Shown here piece by piece: positions 3,001-7,916 of a stretch of DNA of 29,892 bases; position 1 is the first letter of the stretch, and each line of letters opens with the position of its first letter. A model generated the notes under the pieces. It was given only the letters and a program-made list of their open reading frames with translations. It had not been told where the DNA came from and ran no database searches. Source of the DNA: a virus (taxonomy: Duplodnaviria > Heunggongvirae > Uroviricota > Caudoviricetes); IMG/VR virus record IMGVR_UViG_3300020576_001396, positions 64,001 to 93,892 of that record; one strand, 5' to 3'. The translations under genes were made by a program, and so were the position numbers.

Positions 3001-3879
3001 ATCTGTGGTTATGTGTATAGTGTTACTTAAAGGAGATATGGAGGTCTCGGCACCATGGTTGTTGAAATACTGAAAAGCATACTGTACTACCCCTGCTTTG
3101 ATAGCACCGGGGGATAATCTGTCGAGTATAGGCTTGTGAAGTAGGGCTTCTGGTATAAACTCAAACAAGTCTGGTTGAAAGTAATAGTTTACACCAACTG
3201 AGTATGGGTCTTTATCTGTAGTTAGACTGTCTGTAATGTTAGCATAACGCATATTGTTATACCCATCACACCAGTATATTTTTTGTATAGTAGGAGTTTC
3301 ATATGCGCCTACTGACCTTATAGGATATGCTGTACTAAATTTTAAATATCCAGCACTGTTGTTTAAGTTATCATCATATACTACTGCAAAGTCTGTGAAG
3401 GACTCCGTAGAAGCATCTATTTTAAATTTAACTATCTTGCTATGTCCTGTTGTAGGAGTAGTAGTCGTATTAGAAGTTAGAAACAATACAATAGTATCAC
3501 GTATTGTCACACTTCCTACTACATACATGTCATCTTCTGTGAAAGCGTTTAGGTCAGATACCATTGCTCCTGCACCTGTAAATATAATAGGTGAGGATAG
3601 TACTGTGAATATTTGTCCTAATGTATAAGCAACGCTATTATAAGTCGCAGTACCTTTAACTACAATGTATCTGTGCCCTGTCTGTAAAGAACAAGGACTT
3701 AAAGCAGTAGAAATGTTATTATTACCTTCTATGTTCTCTAAGCCTCCTGTAGACTCTCCTACACTAGTTATAAGTCGTATGTTATGTGCGTCTAAATAAC
3801 GTTCCTTAGATATCAAAGACTTATCCAAGTCCTTGACCATACCCATCTGGAACGTGTGTACAGCTTGTTTAGCACTCAT
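1..3879 (-). CDS. Tail muzzle / tail stabilization protein (crAss001 gp44-like, P22 gp10-related), 3' end outside the window
   Basis: Not in the ORF track. ATG at 3879 overlaps the upstream TAA (TAATG). I read all 1293 codons to position 1 and found no stop. Recognisable motifs: MSAKQAVHTFQMGMVKDLDKSLISKERYLDAHNIRLI, IQKIYWCDGYNNMRYAN, AGVVQYAFQYF, KSWQRDEVYRLYIVFF...KWVCDLRMP, LVLGTGGVLDRYDY, RINEREKYMITDF-like C-terminus. It sits directly after ring protein 1, as in crAss-like phages. Confidence 0.9.
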   Translation of the reverse strand, partial: MSAKQAVHTFQMGMVKDLDKSLISKERYLDAHNIRLITSVGESTGGLENIEGNNNISTALSPCSLQTGHRYIVVKGTATYNSVAYTLGQIFTVLSSPIIFTGAGAMVSDLNAFTEDDMYVVGSVTIRDTIVLFLTSNTTTTPTTGHSKIVKFKIDASTESFTDFAVVYDDNLNNSAGYLKFSTAYPIRSVGAYETPTIQKIYWCDGYNNMRYANITDSLTTDKDPYSVGVNYYFQPDLFEFIPEALLHKPILDRLSPGAIKAGVVQYAFQYFNNHGAETSISPLSNTIHITTDNDYLLGSYYYKGEADLSKTTGKSVRMTFTTPDSAKYSHIRVIRLHYETINSVPTITVVGEVPLTSSPATISYLDTGATSYGTYTLDELNLGHTELFGAKDLTIKDERLFASNITKEEFSIGDWDARAVRFNSSNQALVTDTAGNVTINQTFTNWSSYLPDHDGINPYNDPYNDGNATYAYKFQSNGSTLGAEGPNIKIGFTTDTINLDNNNSGNVFSAGTEDQTDNKSYTSFASPYMSGRKSWQRDEVYRLYIVFFNAHGIASPAKWVCDLRMPSLHDNGYHALSVLSGSNINTTALYPTVKLNSFPTGAVSAQLLRMERQGDDRSILTQALVIPVGSVSAASRPRVMTNTIAATGNIVKLVSPEINVTKNISKGSSDYLEYVTYYPSCLVTGNAWLKYYKCDTNALVAYSDSTKATIDDALYVEPRSNTNTFSFNATTCANYDSATSALGCSGLFVHHTNDTWAAEGVSLVVVNYKRDVHVSQYGGQSFESREGNIAIPASDIITSTSPTYTAWNGDTFINFFDVSTQLADLTKTYNNTLNENVFVPLESSVNCDLRHDRSSSKAALDAYNYNIQEVAGKWTNLSGDTYDQKTSLYQYNTVYSQESNAKFYVNVPTSVSTDTEFDCMVKVSKTKINGEAQDSFTLFPINDFIEVQTNHGPITTLSNVNDKLLFWQENAFGVLSVNDRSLVQDSGGAALVLGTGGVLDRYDYVSDKVGSTNNQHVVASQSGVYWLNTKDKSIYRFTNALENITKSKQMQSWFEERLSPANLQYNVIRTVYDKRYNQVLMSFYNTSTANGVTLSFDENIVIDSFSSFYDYYTYKFIPFNEGYLSTNHVYSNDLLFYHNSLIKDRCVFHSYIPGVAASETLSASPKYKDSTIKVVFNDDYGYTKAFDNLSIVSTVTSNNIEIYNRTFNSIRCYNNYQNTDYCDLVYGTNLERDEREWTTFVPRNAVNKNYDTNPDVFAAANLDKTRMFNERIREKYMITDFTFVNTSNQRLV

Positions 3880-4796
3880 TATTTATTCTTATTGTAGATT
3901 ATCTGACGATCACTTAGTGTTGAGAATCCGTTTGCGTGTTCGTGTATCTCAGGTATAAGCCTTAACCACTGATTTTTTATACTCTCAAGTTGATCTATAT
4001 TAGGCATCATTGCATTACCATAAGCCTTCTTACATGTGAAGTTCCACGAACGTCTAGCATCGTAGTATACCTCATCGCGTACTCTACCTAGTTTCCATTC
4101 TGGATAAAGTAGCTTCATTGTTACGTACCAGTATAAAGCTTCTATGAAGTCTACATCGTCTGGTATCATTGGGTAACCATCATTGTCTGTCGGTATAGCT
4201 TGATAAGCTAACATTATATAACCATTCCTGATGTTGGTTTTAATGTAGTTGTTGTTTATAAAATACTTGTAAGTACCATCGTAGTTATAGGCTTCCGTCT
4301 CCATTCCTATACCGTTACTAGGGTACATTCTGTTTAGCATAACAGTAAGTGTATCCCGTACGTTAGGTTCTACATTTAATTTAAGCAAAGCAGCGTCATA
4401 ATCCAAACTGTACAGCGACATAGCTAAGGTTACATAGGAACTCTCAGGGAAGGCATTTGATATGGAGCTTACCTCGTTAACTGTCTTACCTACTTCAAAA
4501 GAACCTGTACCATATATCATAGGATAATAAGGTCCTGTAACATTCTCTGAGAAACTAACCTGTATTATTGAATGAAAGTCATTAGGTAGTTTAGCTTGAT
4601 AGTCAAATACCTCAAGGAAGGGGTTACCGTCTTTACCTGCTACCTTATTTATAAACGATGGAAAAGCGCCTATCTTTAGTAGACCTTCAGCACACCATTC
4701 AATCATGTCTGTTATACGGTGGTCACCTTCTTTTAAATCTAAGTCTGTAAAGACCTTTGCAATTACTCTTTTTACACTTGTAGTTTTATACAACAT
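3879..4796 (-). CDS. Tail ring protein 1 / tail tubular protein (crAss001 gp43-like, P22 gp4-related)
   Basis: 305 aa with SVKRVIAKVFTDLDL, YIKTNIRNGYIMLAYQAIPTDNDGYPMIPD, EALYWYVTMKLLYP and AYGNAMMPNIDQLESIKNQW; immediately upstream of the muzzle gene. Confidence 0.85.
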   Translation of the reverse strand: MLYKTTSVKRVIAKVFTDLDLKEGDHRITDMIEWCAEGLLKIGAFPSFINKVAGKDGNPFLEVFDYQAKLPNDFHSIIQVSFSENVTGPYYPMIYGTGSFEVGKTVNEVSSISNAFPESSYVTLAMSLYSLDYDAALLKLNVEPNVRDTLTVMLNRMYPSNGIGMETEAYNYDGTYKYFINNNYIKTNIRNGYIMLAYQAIPTDNDGYPMIPDDVDFIEALYWYVTMKLLYPEWKLGRVRDEVYYDARRSWNFTCKKAYGNAMMPNIDQLESIKNQWLRLIPEIHEHANGFSTLSDRQIIYNKNK

Positions 4797-5409
4797 AATT
4801 ATTATTTTTAAAAACCCACTTATACCCAGACGCTGATTTTCTTTTTCCTAAAGCAACTAAACTTATGTTTACTTGTTTATTTCGGTTTCCTAAAAATACA
4901 GCTGCTTCAACTGCAGATTCAAATTCTTTTAAAGGTTGTTTTGTTTTTTTATCCAGCATGATTATTGCTTTTTTCATATTCTTAACTCTATAAGAATTTA
5001 ACGCACTTATAGATTGTTTTTTTCTAACTTTTATTAATTCTTCATTAGTAAGTCTACAAATTCCTCTTTTACCTTTTTTTGAAACAGATATTTTTAGTTT
5101 TGTAACTTCACTGCAAATACAACCCAATGAACTACCAGCAACATATAATATATTATATTCTGGTTTTAAATCCAAGTATTTTTGTTCTATAAATAGTAAA
5201 GTATCCTTAATTGGCTCGCAGAGCTCTAGTATGTTGAATTCAAAATGTTGTTCCCCATATTTGTTCCAAGCTCTCTGTAACTTTATAGACTTATGGTTAT
5301 TGTTCCACAAAGAATATTTATGTGACATAAAACGCTTACATATATCAATACTACTACCAATATATCTATGACTATTTAATTTATTTCTTATTTCGTAAAT
5401 CCCTGACAT
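4786..5409 (-). CDS. Free-standing GIY-YIG homing endonuclease (I-TevI-like) with NUMOD3- and NUMOD1-type DNA-binding segments
   Basis: SGIYEIRN...RYIGSS...R...H catalytic domain, EQKYLD...PEYNI..AGSSLG, SEVTKLKISVSKKG, C-terminal KEFESAVEAA...GKRKSASGYKWVF; the DNA is visibly more AT-rich than the flanking ring gene. Confidence 0.9.
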   Translation of the reverse strand: MSGIYEIRNKLNSHRYIGSSIDICKRFMSHKYSLWNNNHKSIKLQRAWNKYGEQHFEFNILELCEPIKDTLLFIEQKYLDLKPEYNILYVAGSSLGCICSEVTKLKISVSKKGKRGICRLTNEELIKVRKKQSISALNSYRVKNMKKAIIMLDKKTKQPLKEFESAVEAAVFLGNRNKQVNISLVALGKRKSASGYKWVFKNNNYVV

Positions 5410-5429
5410 TCAGTAAGTTTGTATATCAT
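5388..5429 (-). pseudogene. Orphan 13-codon ORF MIYKLTECQGFTK*, probable displaced original 5' end of the ring protein 1 gene
   Basis: ATGATATACAAACTTACT (MIYKLT) versus the current ring start ATGTTGTATAAAACTACA (MLYKTT): 12/18 nt and 4/6 aa identical. It starts 10 nt after the upstream TAA. Confidence 0.6.
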
Positions 5430-5439
5430 ATTATTTAAA

Positions 5440-5655
5440 TTATTCTTCTATTGGTAATTCAGGTTCAATAAATGTAACCTCTTGTTGTGGTAGTGTGAGT
5501 AATAGTTCTCTTATTGATATAAATTCATCGTTTGTTAATACGTCTAATGGTAAACAATAACCTTCAACTACTTGTGTAGGATCAAGTGCGGAATAAGTTC
5601 CGTATCTACCACGTACTTGATTAGCCTGATCTGAATTTAATAATATCATTTTCAT
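5440..5655 (-). CDS. Hypothetical 71-aa protein, fibre-associated
   Basis: TAATG-coupled to the upstream gene; same strand as the operon. Confidence 0.7.
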   Translation of the reverse strand: MKMILLNSDQANQVRGRYGTYSALDPTQVVEGYCLPLDVLTNDEFISIRELLLTLPQQEVTFIEPELPIEE

Positions 5656-6473
5656 TAAAATGTTCCTCCTACATTATTATAGAAATAAACTAATATATTA
5701 TAAAGAGTAGTATGTTGGGAATTACTCAAGGACCCTCCTAGAAAAAAAGCTTTTGTACCATTTAACGTTGAGTTATATATTTCGTTATAATTAGAACCGT
5801 TTGATGCTACGTTAGAAGCTGTTGAATATTCTGACACATATGATCCATCTCTAAAAAACTTTCTGTATAGACTTCCGTTTGGTGAACTATTCAAACTCAT
5901 AAATTGTCCTTCTGTTGTATTACCACTATAGGCAGCATATGTAGCAGAAGAGTAATAATACCATCTAGCTGAGGAACCGTAATTAATTAATCCATTCGCA
6001 GTGCTCCCACCTATAACAGATGAGCTTGCTACATTAGGTTTATTGTAAACCATCTGTCCTATTGAAAAATCAGTACATTGATTATAATTAACTTTCTGTG
6101 TATTATTATAATTTAAGTCTAGTTTTTTAGTAGTACCTGTAGTAAATCCTTGCTTAGCAACCCAGGGACAACTATTTATGTTAGTAGAATTATGTGCATT
6201 CTTCACCCAATTTAAATGAGATGCTTGCTCTGTATGTAATCCTCGTATGTAAAAAACATCTAGTTTACTGAAAATACCAGCATCTTTTAAATCCTTTATA
6301 GTTTTATTAATTAACAGTTTTAAAGAATTGGTAGGTTGACTAGACATTCTTGCAAGTAAAGAAACTGTTTCAGATTCTAAATTAGAATACACTTCAATAG
6401 TTCCTTGGTATACTTTATTTACTTGAGACGTACCAATATAAATATTACTATATTGTGTTGTACCTATATACAT
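5655..6473 (-). CDS. Putative fibre/appendage protein (272 aa)
   Basis: N-terminal IYIGTSQVNKVYQG module typical of small phage fibre proteins, followed by a helical segment (LINKTIKDLKDAGIFSKLDVFY) and an S/N/G/Y-rich beta region; TAATG coupling at both ends. Confidence 0.6.
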   Translation of the reverse strand: MYIGTTQYSNIYIGTSQVNKVYQGTIEVYSNLESETVSLLARMSSQPTNSLKLLINKTIKDLKDAGIFSKLDVFYIRGLHTEQASHLNWVKNAHNSTNINSCPWVAKQGFTTGTTKKLDLNYNNTQKVNYNQCTDFSIGQMVYNKPNVASSSVIGGSTANGLINYGSSARWYYYSSATYAAYSGNTTEGQFMSLNSSPNGSLYRKFFRDGSYVSEYSTASNVASNGSNYNEIYNSTLNGTKAFFLGGSLSNSQHTTLYNILVYFYNNVGGTF

Positions 6474-6760
6474 TATACTATAAAATATAAAGTAGAATTA
6501 TCCCACGTGCCTAAAGCATTATATGAAGATTGTGAACCAACCCATACAGACATTGGTGAACCTAATGGACCTTGTGCCCCGGTAGCACCAACTAAAGATG
6601 CTAACCACTGTGCTTCAGTACCAACATAACCGTTCTCTAAAGCTACCTCGTATGCTGATATACCAGGTATGCCTTGTACTTTTATCGTGTCTTTACCCAG
6701 CTTTAAATAAGTATTCTTATTAGCTGAAGAAACATTACCTTCATTACCGTATAGACTCAT
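6473..6760 (-). CDS. Short collagen-associated fibre protein (95 aa)
   Basis: GISAYEVALENGYVGTEAQWLASLVG motif, GATGAQGPLG triplets and the WVGSQSSYNAL...STLYFI fibre motif. Confidence 0.7.
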   Translation of the reverse strand: MSLYGNEGNVSSANKNTYLKLGKDTIKVQGIPGISAYEVALENGYVGTEAQWLASLVGATGAQGPLGSPMSVWVGSQSSYNALGTWDNSTLYFIV

Positions 6761-7224
6761 TATGCTCTTTCAAAATAATCATTTTCTCTTGTCTTTACAA
6801 GTCTTGCAACTTCACGCTTGATTGCTCTAGCGGGTTTAAATATGTAGGCAGTCTTATTATCAGTCATGCTTTTTTTACGATCCCAGTAGAATCTGTAAAC
6901 ATAACCATTACTATGTTCGTTAAACTGTCGTACTTGTTTGTTCTGTTCCTTGGACTTGTCCCAGTCCATAACCATGTTCTTTAAAGACTTGTACACAGGT
7001 TTGTGTTTAACAACTGTTATCTCTCCCAACCTAAAAGGTAGACATATTGTAGTAGACTTGTAAACAAGCTGTTCTGTCATATGCTTTAGAAACATGGTTG
7101 TTATATCTCTGTACTCGAGGTACTTTAAATAATAGTCTGAACCTTCAGGATACTTAATTAAATAGTCCTTGTAACTATCTTGTATAGTATAAGGATTCTG
7201 TATCTTATTCTTGCCTATACCCAT
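6760..7224 (-). CDS. crAss-type IHF/HU-like DNA-binding protein
   Basis: LPFRLGEITVVKHKP...DWDKSK...NEHSNGYVYRFYW...NK..Y...PARAIKREVARLVK; located between ring genes, as in crAss-like tail modules. Confidence 0.75.
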   Translation of the reverse strand: MGIGKNKIQNPYTIQDSYKDYLIKYPEGSDYYLKYLEYRDITTMFLKHMTEQLVYKSTTICLPFRLGEITVVKHKPVYKSLKNMVMDWDKSKEQNKQVRQFNEHSNGYVYRFYWDRKKSMTDNKTAYIFKPARAIKREVARLVKTRENDYFERA

Positions 7225-7916
7225 TACTCAGCGTTTACAGACACTTCGTTGGAACTGTCATTCTTATTGTCACTTGGTGCTTGAGAAAGTATACCAAGCT
7301 CTTTGGAGAGTATCATCTCCTTTAATACAGGTACCATGTTAGCTGGTATAGGATAAGCATCTCTGTATTCTAGTGTAACAACTTCAGAATTAGGATTAAT
7401 ATAGTTACCTACTTCAGTTGGAACTTCAAATATACCACGTACTGTTATTGACTCTAAGGGAGTTGGATAAGTAATGTATAAATGTTTATTACGTAAGAAT
7501 GCTAGAGGGTTGTTGGCGGTGAAGCGCTTATACTTCTGCCACTTAGTCCTTCCCTCTGGTACGAGTTGAATCTCGTTTCCGTCTATAGTGCCTAGGTATG
7601 TGAAGCCCGGCTTAAAGTTAAGGTCTAAGGTTTTAGGAACAGCAAGCTTCGTTCTCAGAAAGAAGGTCTCTGACTTGAGGTCTACCTCCTTAGATTGATC
7701 TACAACTTCCAACAACAACCCTGGAATCTCTTGAATGTAATCTGGATTAGGCATCTTGCCTTTATCCATATCTTGTTTAATAAGTAAAGCCCTATACTGA
7801 TTAATCCACTCTTCGACTTGTCTACGTGTTATAGTTTCACTTTGTGTAACTTTGCTACCACGTATTATGTTGAGTAAGTCAGTAATTATATTGTCTAGTG
7901 TAATGAATGTAATCAT
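7224..7916 (-). CDS. Tail ring protein 2 (crAss001 gp40-like)
   Basis: ITLDNIITDLLNIIR, WINQYRALLIKQDMDKGKMPNPDYIQ, YPIPANMVPVLKEMILSKEL. Confidence 0.8.
   Translation of the reverse strand: MITFITLDNIITDLLNIIRGSKVTQSETITRRQVEEWINQYRALLIKQDMDKGKMPNPDYIQEIPGLLLEVVDQSKEVDLKSETFFLRTKLAVPKTLDLNFKPGFTYLGTIDGNEIQLVPEGRTKWQKYKRFTANNPLAFLRNKHLYITYPTPLESITVRGIFEVPTEVGNYINPNSEVVTLEYRDAYPIPANMVPVLKEMILSKELGILSQAPSDNKNDSSNEVSVNAE

Follow-up and report, generated by a model that had tools for sequence, protein, structure and literature searches.

A displaced ring-protein start at the edge of a GIY-YIG homing endonuclease gene in a crAss-like phage

The window analyzed here is a 29,892-nucleotide (nt) stretch at the end of a crAss-like phage record of 93.9 kb (IMG/VR virus record IMGVR_UViG_3300020576_001396). 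On its minus strand, a gene for a free-standing GIY-YIG homing endonuclease lies directly upstream of the gene for ring protein 1 (ring-1), a crAss tail ring protein. The 5' edge of the endonuclease gene is marked by an orphan copy of the first six ring-1 codons, and the ring-1 gene itself begins with a second, working start that overlaps the endonuclease 3' end. This footprint is real, and mechanistically it is a minor variation on the intronless homing already known for free-standing GIY-YIG enzymes. It probably, if by a modest measure, reflects one-sided homing, in which an imprecise left junction formed after ring nucleotide 18-20 and the working start was imported together with the endonuclease.

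Orphan and working ring-1 starts

The orphan, ATGATATACAAACTTACT, encodes MIYKLT at positions 5429-5412 of the minus strand and is separated by a 10-nt spacer, TTTAAATAAT, from the TAA stop codon of the preceding gene of 71 amino acids (aa). It opens a 13-codon upstream open reading frame (uORF), MIYKLTECQGFTK, which spans 5429-5388 with its stop at 5390-5388 and is read in another frame than the endonuclease. The endonuclease ATG (5409) lies 2 nt beyond the 18-nt orphan, and the uORF stop falls 19 nt past this ATG, giving an overlap of 22 nt. The working start, ATGTTGTATAAAACTACA, encodes MLYKTT at 4796-4779 and is clade-atypical at positions 2 and 5; the open reading frame (ORF) of ring-1 begins MLYKTTSVKRVIAK. 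An 11-nt overlap (4796-4786, minus strand) joins this gene to the endonuclease, whose terminal residues NNNYVV and stop codon (TAA, 4788-4786) are read across the ring-1 ATG and codons 2-4, with NYVV and the stop read over ATGTTGTATAA. The initial annotation of the sequence had described the orphan, the 10-nt spacer, the continuation of the orphan as ECQGFTK to a stop, and an MLYKTT start overlapped by the NYVV tail, and all of these elements are present.

That annotation had also taken the orphan for a displaced ring-1 start, an assignment that a position matrix supports. The matrix was built from 119 ring-1 N-termini and scored on the 685 stop-free, ATG-initiated hexapeptides of the window, with both strands included. 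Among the 685, the orphan ranks first at 21.9 bits, followed by the working start at 20.4 bits and the next best hexapeptide at 10.1 bits. Its P value is 3.9e-6 per ATG, with 0.003 such matches expected per window, and becomes 1.9e-6 with a broader matrix of 186 distinct N-termini, placing it at about 2-4e-6 overall. The orphan is a genuine displaced copy of the ring-1 start rather than a chance match, and it lies exactly at the endonuclease 5' edge.

The orphan and the working start lie 633 nt apart and are identical at 12 of 18 nt. Nucleotide self-alignment of the ring start against the endonuclease 5' region is significant in none of the loci, the window included, where significance is precluded because the copies differ at 6 of 18 nt. 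An exact search of IMG/VR with the orphan 18-mer returns a single match, in L011, which is unrelated and due to chance.

The endonuclease gene

The inserted gene (5409..4786, minus strand) encodes an apparently intact, free-standing, I-TevI-like GIY-YIG protein of 207 aa that matches PF01541 (E 4.7e-9) and homing-endonuclease PHROGs. It aligns to the I-TevI catalytic domain (1mk0/1ln0, E 2e-11) through SGIYEI, YIGSS, KR, HKSIKLQR, and an aligned Glu, so that the GIY, YIG, Arg, His, and Glu positions are all kept. The C-terminal half has no Pfam match and ends in a ..SGYKW.FKN tail common to homologues with PF07453 or PF07460. The gene is single-copy in the 93.9-kb genome. By its domain and its sporadic presence at one site, the predicted product is a GIY-YIG homing endonuclease of the I-TevI/Seg type.

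The insertion is intron-free, as had been proposed. An Rfam scan of positions 3800-6000 at E values up to 10 finds no group I or group II intron model, and there is no room for a ribozyme core because the endonuclease ORF takes up 624 of the approximately 633 nt that separate ring codon 7 from the orphan. The base that precedes the would-be 3' splice site is A, not G. RNA folding of the junction predicts no unusual structure, its fold being weaker than those of shuffled sequences.

Ring-1 starts in relatives

Most of 119 other ring-1 proteins begin with MIYK, T, N, or L at position 5, and a further T, followed by SVKRVIAK, and 76% of ring-1 N-termini in the family start with MI. In a tree of ring-1 sequences from residue 8 onward, the window falls into a clade of 12 members that has an SH-aLRT support of 100. 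All 11 other members of this clade have L-T at positions 5-6, and the window alone has KTT. The sister protein, P0003 (80% identity), starts MIYKLTSVKRVIAK, which reads MIYKLT-SVKRVIAK. The same contiguous sequence, which the initial annotation had predicted for relatives, is borne out at the protein level in P0003 and P0006, and also in P0007 and P0009, where L replaces I at position 12.

The orphan matches the clade consensus at 6 of 6 positions and the working start at 4 of 6, most relatives being compared as protein only. Sliding-window comparisons place solely the first ~15 residues of the ring protein of the window nearer to distant clades than to its own. Judged by these comparisons, it is the orphan that has the typical sequence of the clade; the working start departs from it and was correctly described as diverged.

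The sole close-clade locus available as DNA, L012 (73% identity), carries a glycine-rich gene, then 17 nt, then ATGATTTATAAATTAACA, encoding MIYKLT. No endonuclease is present within the 222 nt upstream of its ring start, which is the extent of DNA compared. MLYKTT is a natural start in more distant, endonuclease-free phages (L099-L101 and L117), and the ring start of L117 shares 16 of 18 nt with the working start of the window.

Proposed origin by one-sided homing

Three accessory genes precede ring-1 in the window instead of the usual gene of ~155 aa, and because they displace this usual neighbour, homology to a donor would have existed on the ring side only. Acquisition would have proceeded through double-strand-break repair that was homologous on the right side and illegitimate on the left. 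At the left junction, the resident DNA would have been interrupted after ring nucleotide 18-20 and its end fused to the endonuclease gene at the 5' side, stranding the first six codons, MIYKLT. MLYKTT, which lies partly within the last 11 nt of the endonuclease ORF, would have arrived with the endonuclease, and the ring gene would be resident from about codon 7 on. The resulting structure would consist of resident ring nt 1-18, 2 nt, the endonuclease with the donor ring start, and the resident ring gene from ~codon 7. The left and right junctions map to the same ring-1 point, and if the one-sided model holds, we infer that the break fell near nucleotide 18-20. The footprint thereby predicts a cut by this uncharacterized endonuclease near codon 6-7 of ring-1.

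In T4, one-sided homing events whose illegitimate junctions formed at microhomology have been described (Parker et al. 1999, reviewed in PMC2988022). The experimental work on the T4 td intron resembles the present case in that homology exists on one side and the other junction forms at short or no homology, and differs in that the event proposed here is read from a natural footprint. If correct, the locus offers a simple natural case of a homing endonuclease entering a lineage without homology on one side. Current views of homing endonucleases are not overturned by it.

The endonucleases most closely related to that of the window bear on whether the ring start travels with the enzyme. The four closest, P0122-P0125 (65-74% identity), end in ..KDVV, ..KNGL, ..DYGV, and ..DYVV, and in the ring frame these tails imply ATG, then TTG, GTG, or GTT, then TAT-AA, corresponding to ML or MV followed by Y. 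From these protein tails, the first ring codons appear to travel with the P0122-P0125 subfamily. A further homologue, P0152, encoded on a 4485-nt Logan contig, starts with MIYNLIS in frame and continues with DSFKDIPNSSGVYMIKN. The resemblance of MIYNLIS to the ring-1 start has a P value of 6.6e-6, or 0.002 when corrected for 251 N-termini, and P0152 may be another example of ring-start capture, in this instance in frame.

The initiation context of the orphan is still the original one, and the uORF that it opens probably feeds or limits endonuclease translation through termination-reinitiation. In T4, segC, segF, mobA, and mobC show overlaps of 11-24 bp with upstream ORFs, which are thought to allow just low-level reinitiation (PMC2988022). 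Dampening of the endonuclease by the uORF, as initially suggested, is a reasonable possibility, and the coupling could equally be what permits translation of the endonuclease.

Several points weigh against one-sided homing with an imported start. The call of resident versus imported depends on two residues (I2L and L5T), and L at position 2 is also found inside the clade, in P0002 and P0005. Relatives of 74-80% identity were compared as protein, and there is no empty/occupied pair from the lineage of the window; the metagenome scan contains no relative above 68% among the matches listed, and the genome-contig scan contains none above 54%. The cut site of the family may lie upstream rather than in ring-1, given that the ring start is untouched in loci L062 and L084, described below. 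Finally, identity to the nearest endonuclease homologue is only 74%, which means that the insertion is not necessarily young; even so, the orphan, although free of constraint, matches MIYKLT without a change. Such preservation requires that the event was recent, that the orphan is renewed whenever homing occurs, or that the uORF is under selection.

The endonuclease family at ring-1 boundaries

The distribution of the endonuclease was examined in 160 related loci drawn from viral contigs and metagenomes (for the latter, the matches listed), with flanks of 3.5-5 kb. A homologous endonuclease lies directly 5' of the ring-1 ATG in 16 of the 160 loci and directly 3' of ring-1 in 4. There are 22 endonuclease matches in total, 18 upstream and 4 downstream, all of them at ring-1 boundaries and none elsewhere in the 3.5-5 kb flanks. 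Both ends of ring-1 are hotspots, since homologues occupy the 5' and the 3' boundary, and the ring-1 gene boundaries thus constitute a hotspot for one GIY-YIG family across crAss-like phages. In GenBank entry cr113_1, GIY-YIG genes flank both sides of a 'tail tubular protein' that is homologous to ring-1, the upstream one overlapping the start by 32 nt; cr114_1 has one GIY-YIG gene, downstream of the ring-1 homologue. A search of the crAss literature found no description of the association of the family with ring-1 or of the N-terminal stub, although the genes themselves are annotated in GenBank.

The 3'-boundary copies lie between ring-1 and the large downstream virion gene (L064:1755-2354, L090:515-820, L091:4443-4733, and L115:910-1212), and NC_055896.1 (L172) and NC_055897.1 (L173) also carry a GIY-YIG gene at the ring-1 3' boundary. 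The endonuclease 5' of ring-1 in L091 (2864-3486) seems decayed, with an early in-frame stop in the catalytic domain (..SSIRRRYR followed by the stop), and the ring start of L091 is likewise unusual.

In L044, L064, L078, and L082, the end of the endonuclease gene and the ring start overlap by 11-26 nt. The overlap at the 3' end of the endonuclease, which the initial annotation had singled out as a ring start written into the last codons of another gene, is therefore present in the window without being special to it, as these four loci and cr113_1 are alike. By this comparison, a stop/start overlap is the normal arrangement of the endonuclease family. The 3' junction of the window, AATAATT followed by ATG, resembles that of L070 (AATAATTAAT followed by ATG) and that of L013, and the working start can therefore be regarded as an ordinary ring start accompanying the endonuclease.

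The 5' side of the family looks different from that of the window. At most occupied loci, the ~155-aa gene (...DYFE) ends 0-4 nt before the endonuclease begins or the two genes overlap, and no orphan is detectable. The proposal that the endonuclease had inserted ~18 nt into the ring gene and restored it with a designed replacement start holds for the window as far as the displaced start, the missing intron, and the divergent working start are concerned. It fails as a general mode, given that most occupied relatives have no orphan and carry the endonuclease cleanly between genes.

Two orphan candidates from the protein-matrix scan, RIYFTTS in L013 and GINKNTH in L062, each rank second in their locus and are weak, and they were not counted. 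In L013 (2951-2977, equal to L001:2451-2477), the endonuclease starts with ATGATAGCAACTTCT (MIATS) directly after the upstream stop. MIATS resembles the locus's own ring start, ATGATATACAAAACAACTTCC, minus 6 nt, and may be an eroded in-frame orphan, although this is statistically insecure; to see eroded in-frame ring starts in MIATS and in MIKIS of P0122 is speculation. A link between ML or MV ring starts and the presence of an endonuclease was considered and rejected, as 36 endonuclease-free loci have such starts. The 15 occupied loci with M at the inferred ring start position all have MI.

Occupied and empty alleles in gut crAss phages

Two near-identical pairs of occupied and empty loci, L062/L072 and L084/L083, are available from a gut crAss clade, and they belong to the one endonuclease subfamily for which such pairs exist. 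Over ~200 nt to the left of the endonuclease, L062 and L084 are 97-100% identical to one another and 62-73% identical to their respective backgrounds. From the first nucleotides of the ring gene on, they are 77-92% identical to one another and 95-100% identical to their own backgrounds. This pattern indicates that, when the L062/L084 subfamily moves, ~200 nt from the upstream gene's 3' end are carried along, and that the ring start stays of the recipient type. Phylogeny and gene calling on these virion genes must therefore allow for the transfer of the endonuclease together with ~200 nt of a neighbouring gene. The flank pattern suggests a cut site in the upstream gene, similar to the distant cut sites of T4 Seg and Mob enzymes. 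On the evidence of the loci compared, cutting inside ring-1 is not the general way in which the endonuclease family homes. The L062/L084 enzyme is 45% identical to that of the window, and the result is not directly transferable to the window for this reason. In L062 and L084 (2400-3505), the altered codons of the upstream gene that encode ..DYVE.. contain the endonuclease ATG.

Alternative explanations

The first alternative takes the proposal of the initial annotation to its full extent. It holds that an in-gene cassette cuts ring-1 near nucleotide 18-20 with both homology arms in the ring start, leaves the recipient start as an orphan each time, and installs a recoded donor start that renders the occupied allele uncuttable, with the upstream gene irrelevant throughout. 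We consider this doubtful, though several observations are compatible with it. Both junctions lie at the same ring point, the orphan ending at nucleotide 18 and resident-like sequence beginning at ~codon 7, and the unaltered state of the orphan is what regeneration with every homing event would produce. M(L/V)Y starts are overlapped by all of the closest endonucleases, P0152 begins with MIYNLIS fused in frame to the endonuclease, and fungal mitochondrial mobile ORFs provide a mirror image at C-termini (PMC3630166). Against it, the orphan is seen at the DNA level in the window locus only, other occupied loci have no significant orphan, and 18 nt is a very short left homology arm. The L062/L084 subfamily carries its upstream flank and leaves the ring start unchanged, and ML and MV starts are common in endonuclease-free loci.

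The mechanism envisaged under this alternative, which is similarly tentative, is a portable cassette whose two arms are the first ~18 nt of ring-1 and whose enzyme cuts just after codon 6, with the stranded uORF driving or limiting the endonuclease and the recoded start conferring immunity. If true, such a cassette could invade an essential virion gene without an intron, in phages with unrelated upstream genes, and would be the N-terminal phage counterpart of the mobile ORFs (mORFs) of fungal mitochondria.

An improbable alternative reverses the order of events, with the endonuclease already in place between the 154-aa gene and ring-1, and the accessory genes inserted later together with an 18-nt foreign ring stub through an illegitimate right junction. 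Accessory tail genes are often exchanged among phages, the region 5' of ring-1 varies within the clade (as in L012 with its glycine-rich gene), and the orphan is contiguous with the accessory genes, all of which would fit. This order nevertheless requires an unassisted illegitimate junction that fell precisely where the endonuclease gene begins. From codon 7 on, the ring body also belongs to the same clade as the orphan, a clade that typically has such upstream genes, and MLYKTT is the outlier.

In situ duplication of the ring start in tandem, such as replication slippage might have caused during insertion, with later divergence of the working copy, would account for two copies of the same six codons 633 nt apart. 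It is very improbable, as 6 of 18 nt differ even though the working copy is under purifying selection, and the unconstrained copy is the one that matches the clade consensus at all six positions. Least credible of all is a self-splicing intron or translational bypass joining MIYKLT to SVKRVIAK, which would explain why the orphan plus codon 7 gives the exact family consensus, MIYKLTSVKRVIAK, but meets the absence of an intron match, of room for a ribozyme, of the expected G, and of unusual RNA structure described above, as well as a downstream gene that has its own ATG and a Pfam match from profile position 1.

Relation to known mobile elements

The locus shares several features with the free-standing GIY-YIG enzymes of T4 (Seg) and with I-TevI. 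These include an I-TevI-like domain, the absence of an intron, a location between conserved genes that are tightly packed, sporadic occurrence among relatives at a single fixed site, co-transfer of flanking sequence (L062/L084), and overlaps of ~11-24 nt with neighbours. It differs in its host and site, a crAss-like phage and the 5' boundary of ring-1, and its activity is predicted from sequence. It also differs in that an 18-nt duplicate of the start of the target gene was left behind, now forming a uORF.

Closer parallels exist among mORFs with a duplicated gene terminus, which occur in atp6 of Allomyces macrogynus and in atp6, atp9, cox2, and nad3 of Glomus (PMC3630166). In these fungal cases, a foreign C-terminus has been inserted, and the native one stays behind as an orphan with the same sequence as in close relatives (PMC3630166). 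As in the window, an endonuclease ORF has entered a coding gene with no intron involved, a divergent copy of the terminus is used, the orphan matches close relatives, and the duplicated terminus flanks the endonuclease ORF on both sides (MIYKLT at 5429-5412 and MLYKTT at 4796-4779). Unlike the fungal cases, the duplication here is N-terminal, spans 6 codons rather than tens to hundreds, lies in a phage rather than an organelle, and involves an endonuclease that is out of phase with the host gene; the putative foreign origin of the copy in use depends on two residues.

The split genes of T4-like phages, in which mobE interrupts nrdA of Aeh1 and mobA lies between T4 genes 39 and 60, yield two polypeptides that reassemble (PMC2988022). 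They are similar in that a free-standing endonuclease interrupts an essential coding sequence and the phage is viable without splicing. In the window, by contrast, the ring-1 ORF is complete (profile positions 1-271 of 272), and what lies upstream is a stub of 6 codons that runs on into out-of-frame sequence and for which no protein role is expected.

Gene order around the insertion

On the minus strand, the order of genes is ring protein 2, then genes of 154, 95, 272, and 71 aa, the orphan with the endonuclease, ring-1, and a gene of >1293 aa. Ring protein 2 (7916..7224) matches PF25702. The 154-aa gene (7224..6760) matches phrog_12177 and is a homologue of the ~155-aa gene that usually lies directly 5' of ring-1; BLASTP against positions 2526-2999 of L002 gives 32% identity (E 2e-24), and a C-terminal ...NDYFE motif is common to both.

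Three genes of 95, 272, and 71 aa (5440-6760) separate the 154-aa gene from ring-1 in the window, two genes that are adjacent in most relatives. The 95-aa gene, with a tail-tip domain, and the 272-aa gene are accessory (6760..5655, from the ORF list) and match PF24243 and tail-fibre PHROGs. Neither accessory gene is present in L001-L006, where the ~155-aa gene abuts ring-1 or the endonuclease, and a search of viral contigs found no relatives of the 272-aa gene. The 71-aa gene (5655..5440, with its TAA at 5442-5440) has no family match and is the immediate upstream neighbour of the orphan start. The slot upstream of ring-1 is variable in the clade of the window, as L012 carries a different, glycine-rich gene there.

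Promoter and terminator scans of the locus give no more hits than expected from shuffled sequences. A terminator-like hairpin with a T-run lies at 4897-4915 (minus strand), toward the 3' end of the endonuclease ORF and ~100 nt upstream of the ring-1 ATG. No other such site occurs in 3.5 kb, but this count is no greater than in shuffled sequences. Ring-1 itself (4796..3879, minus strand) is full length at 305 aa and matches PF24228 (E 3.7e-83), and the gene of >1293 aa follows next on the same strand.

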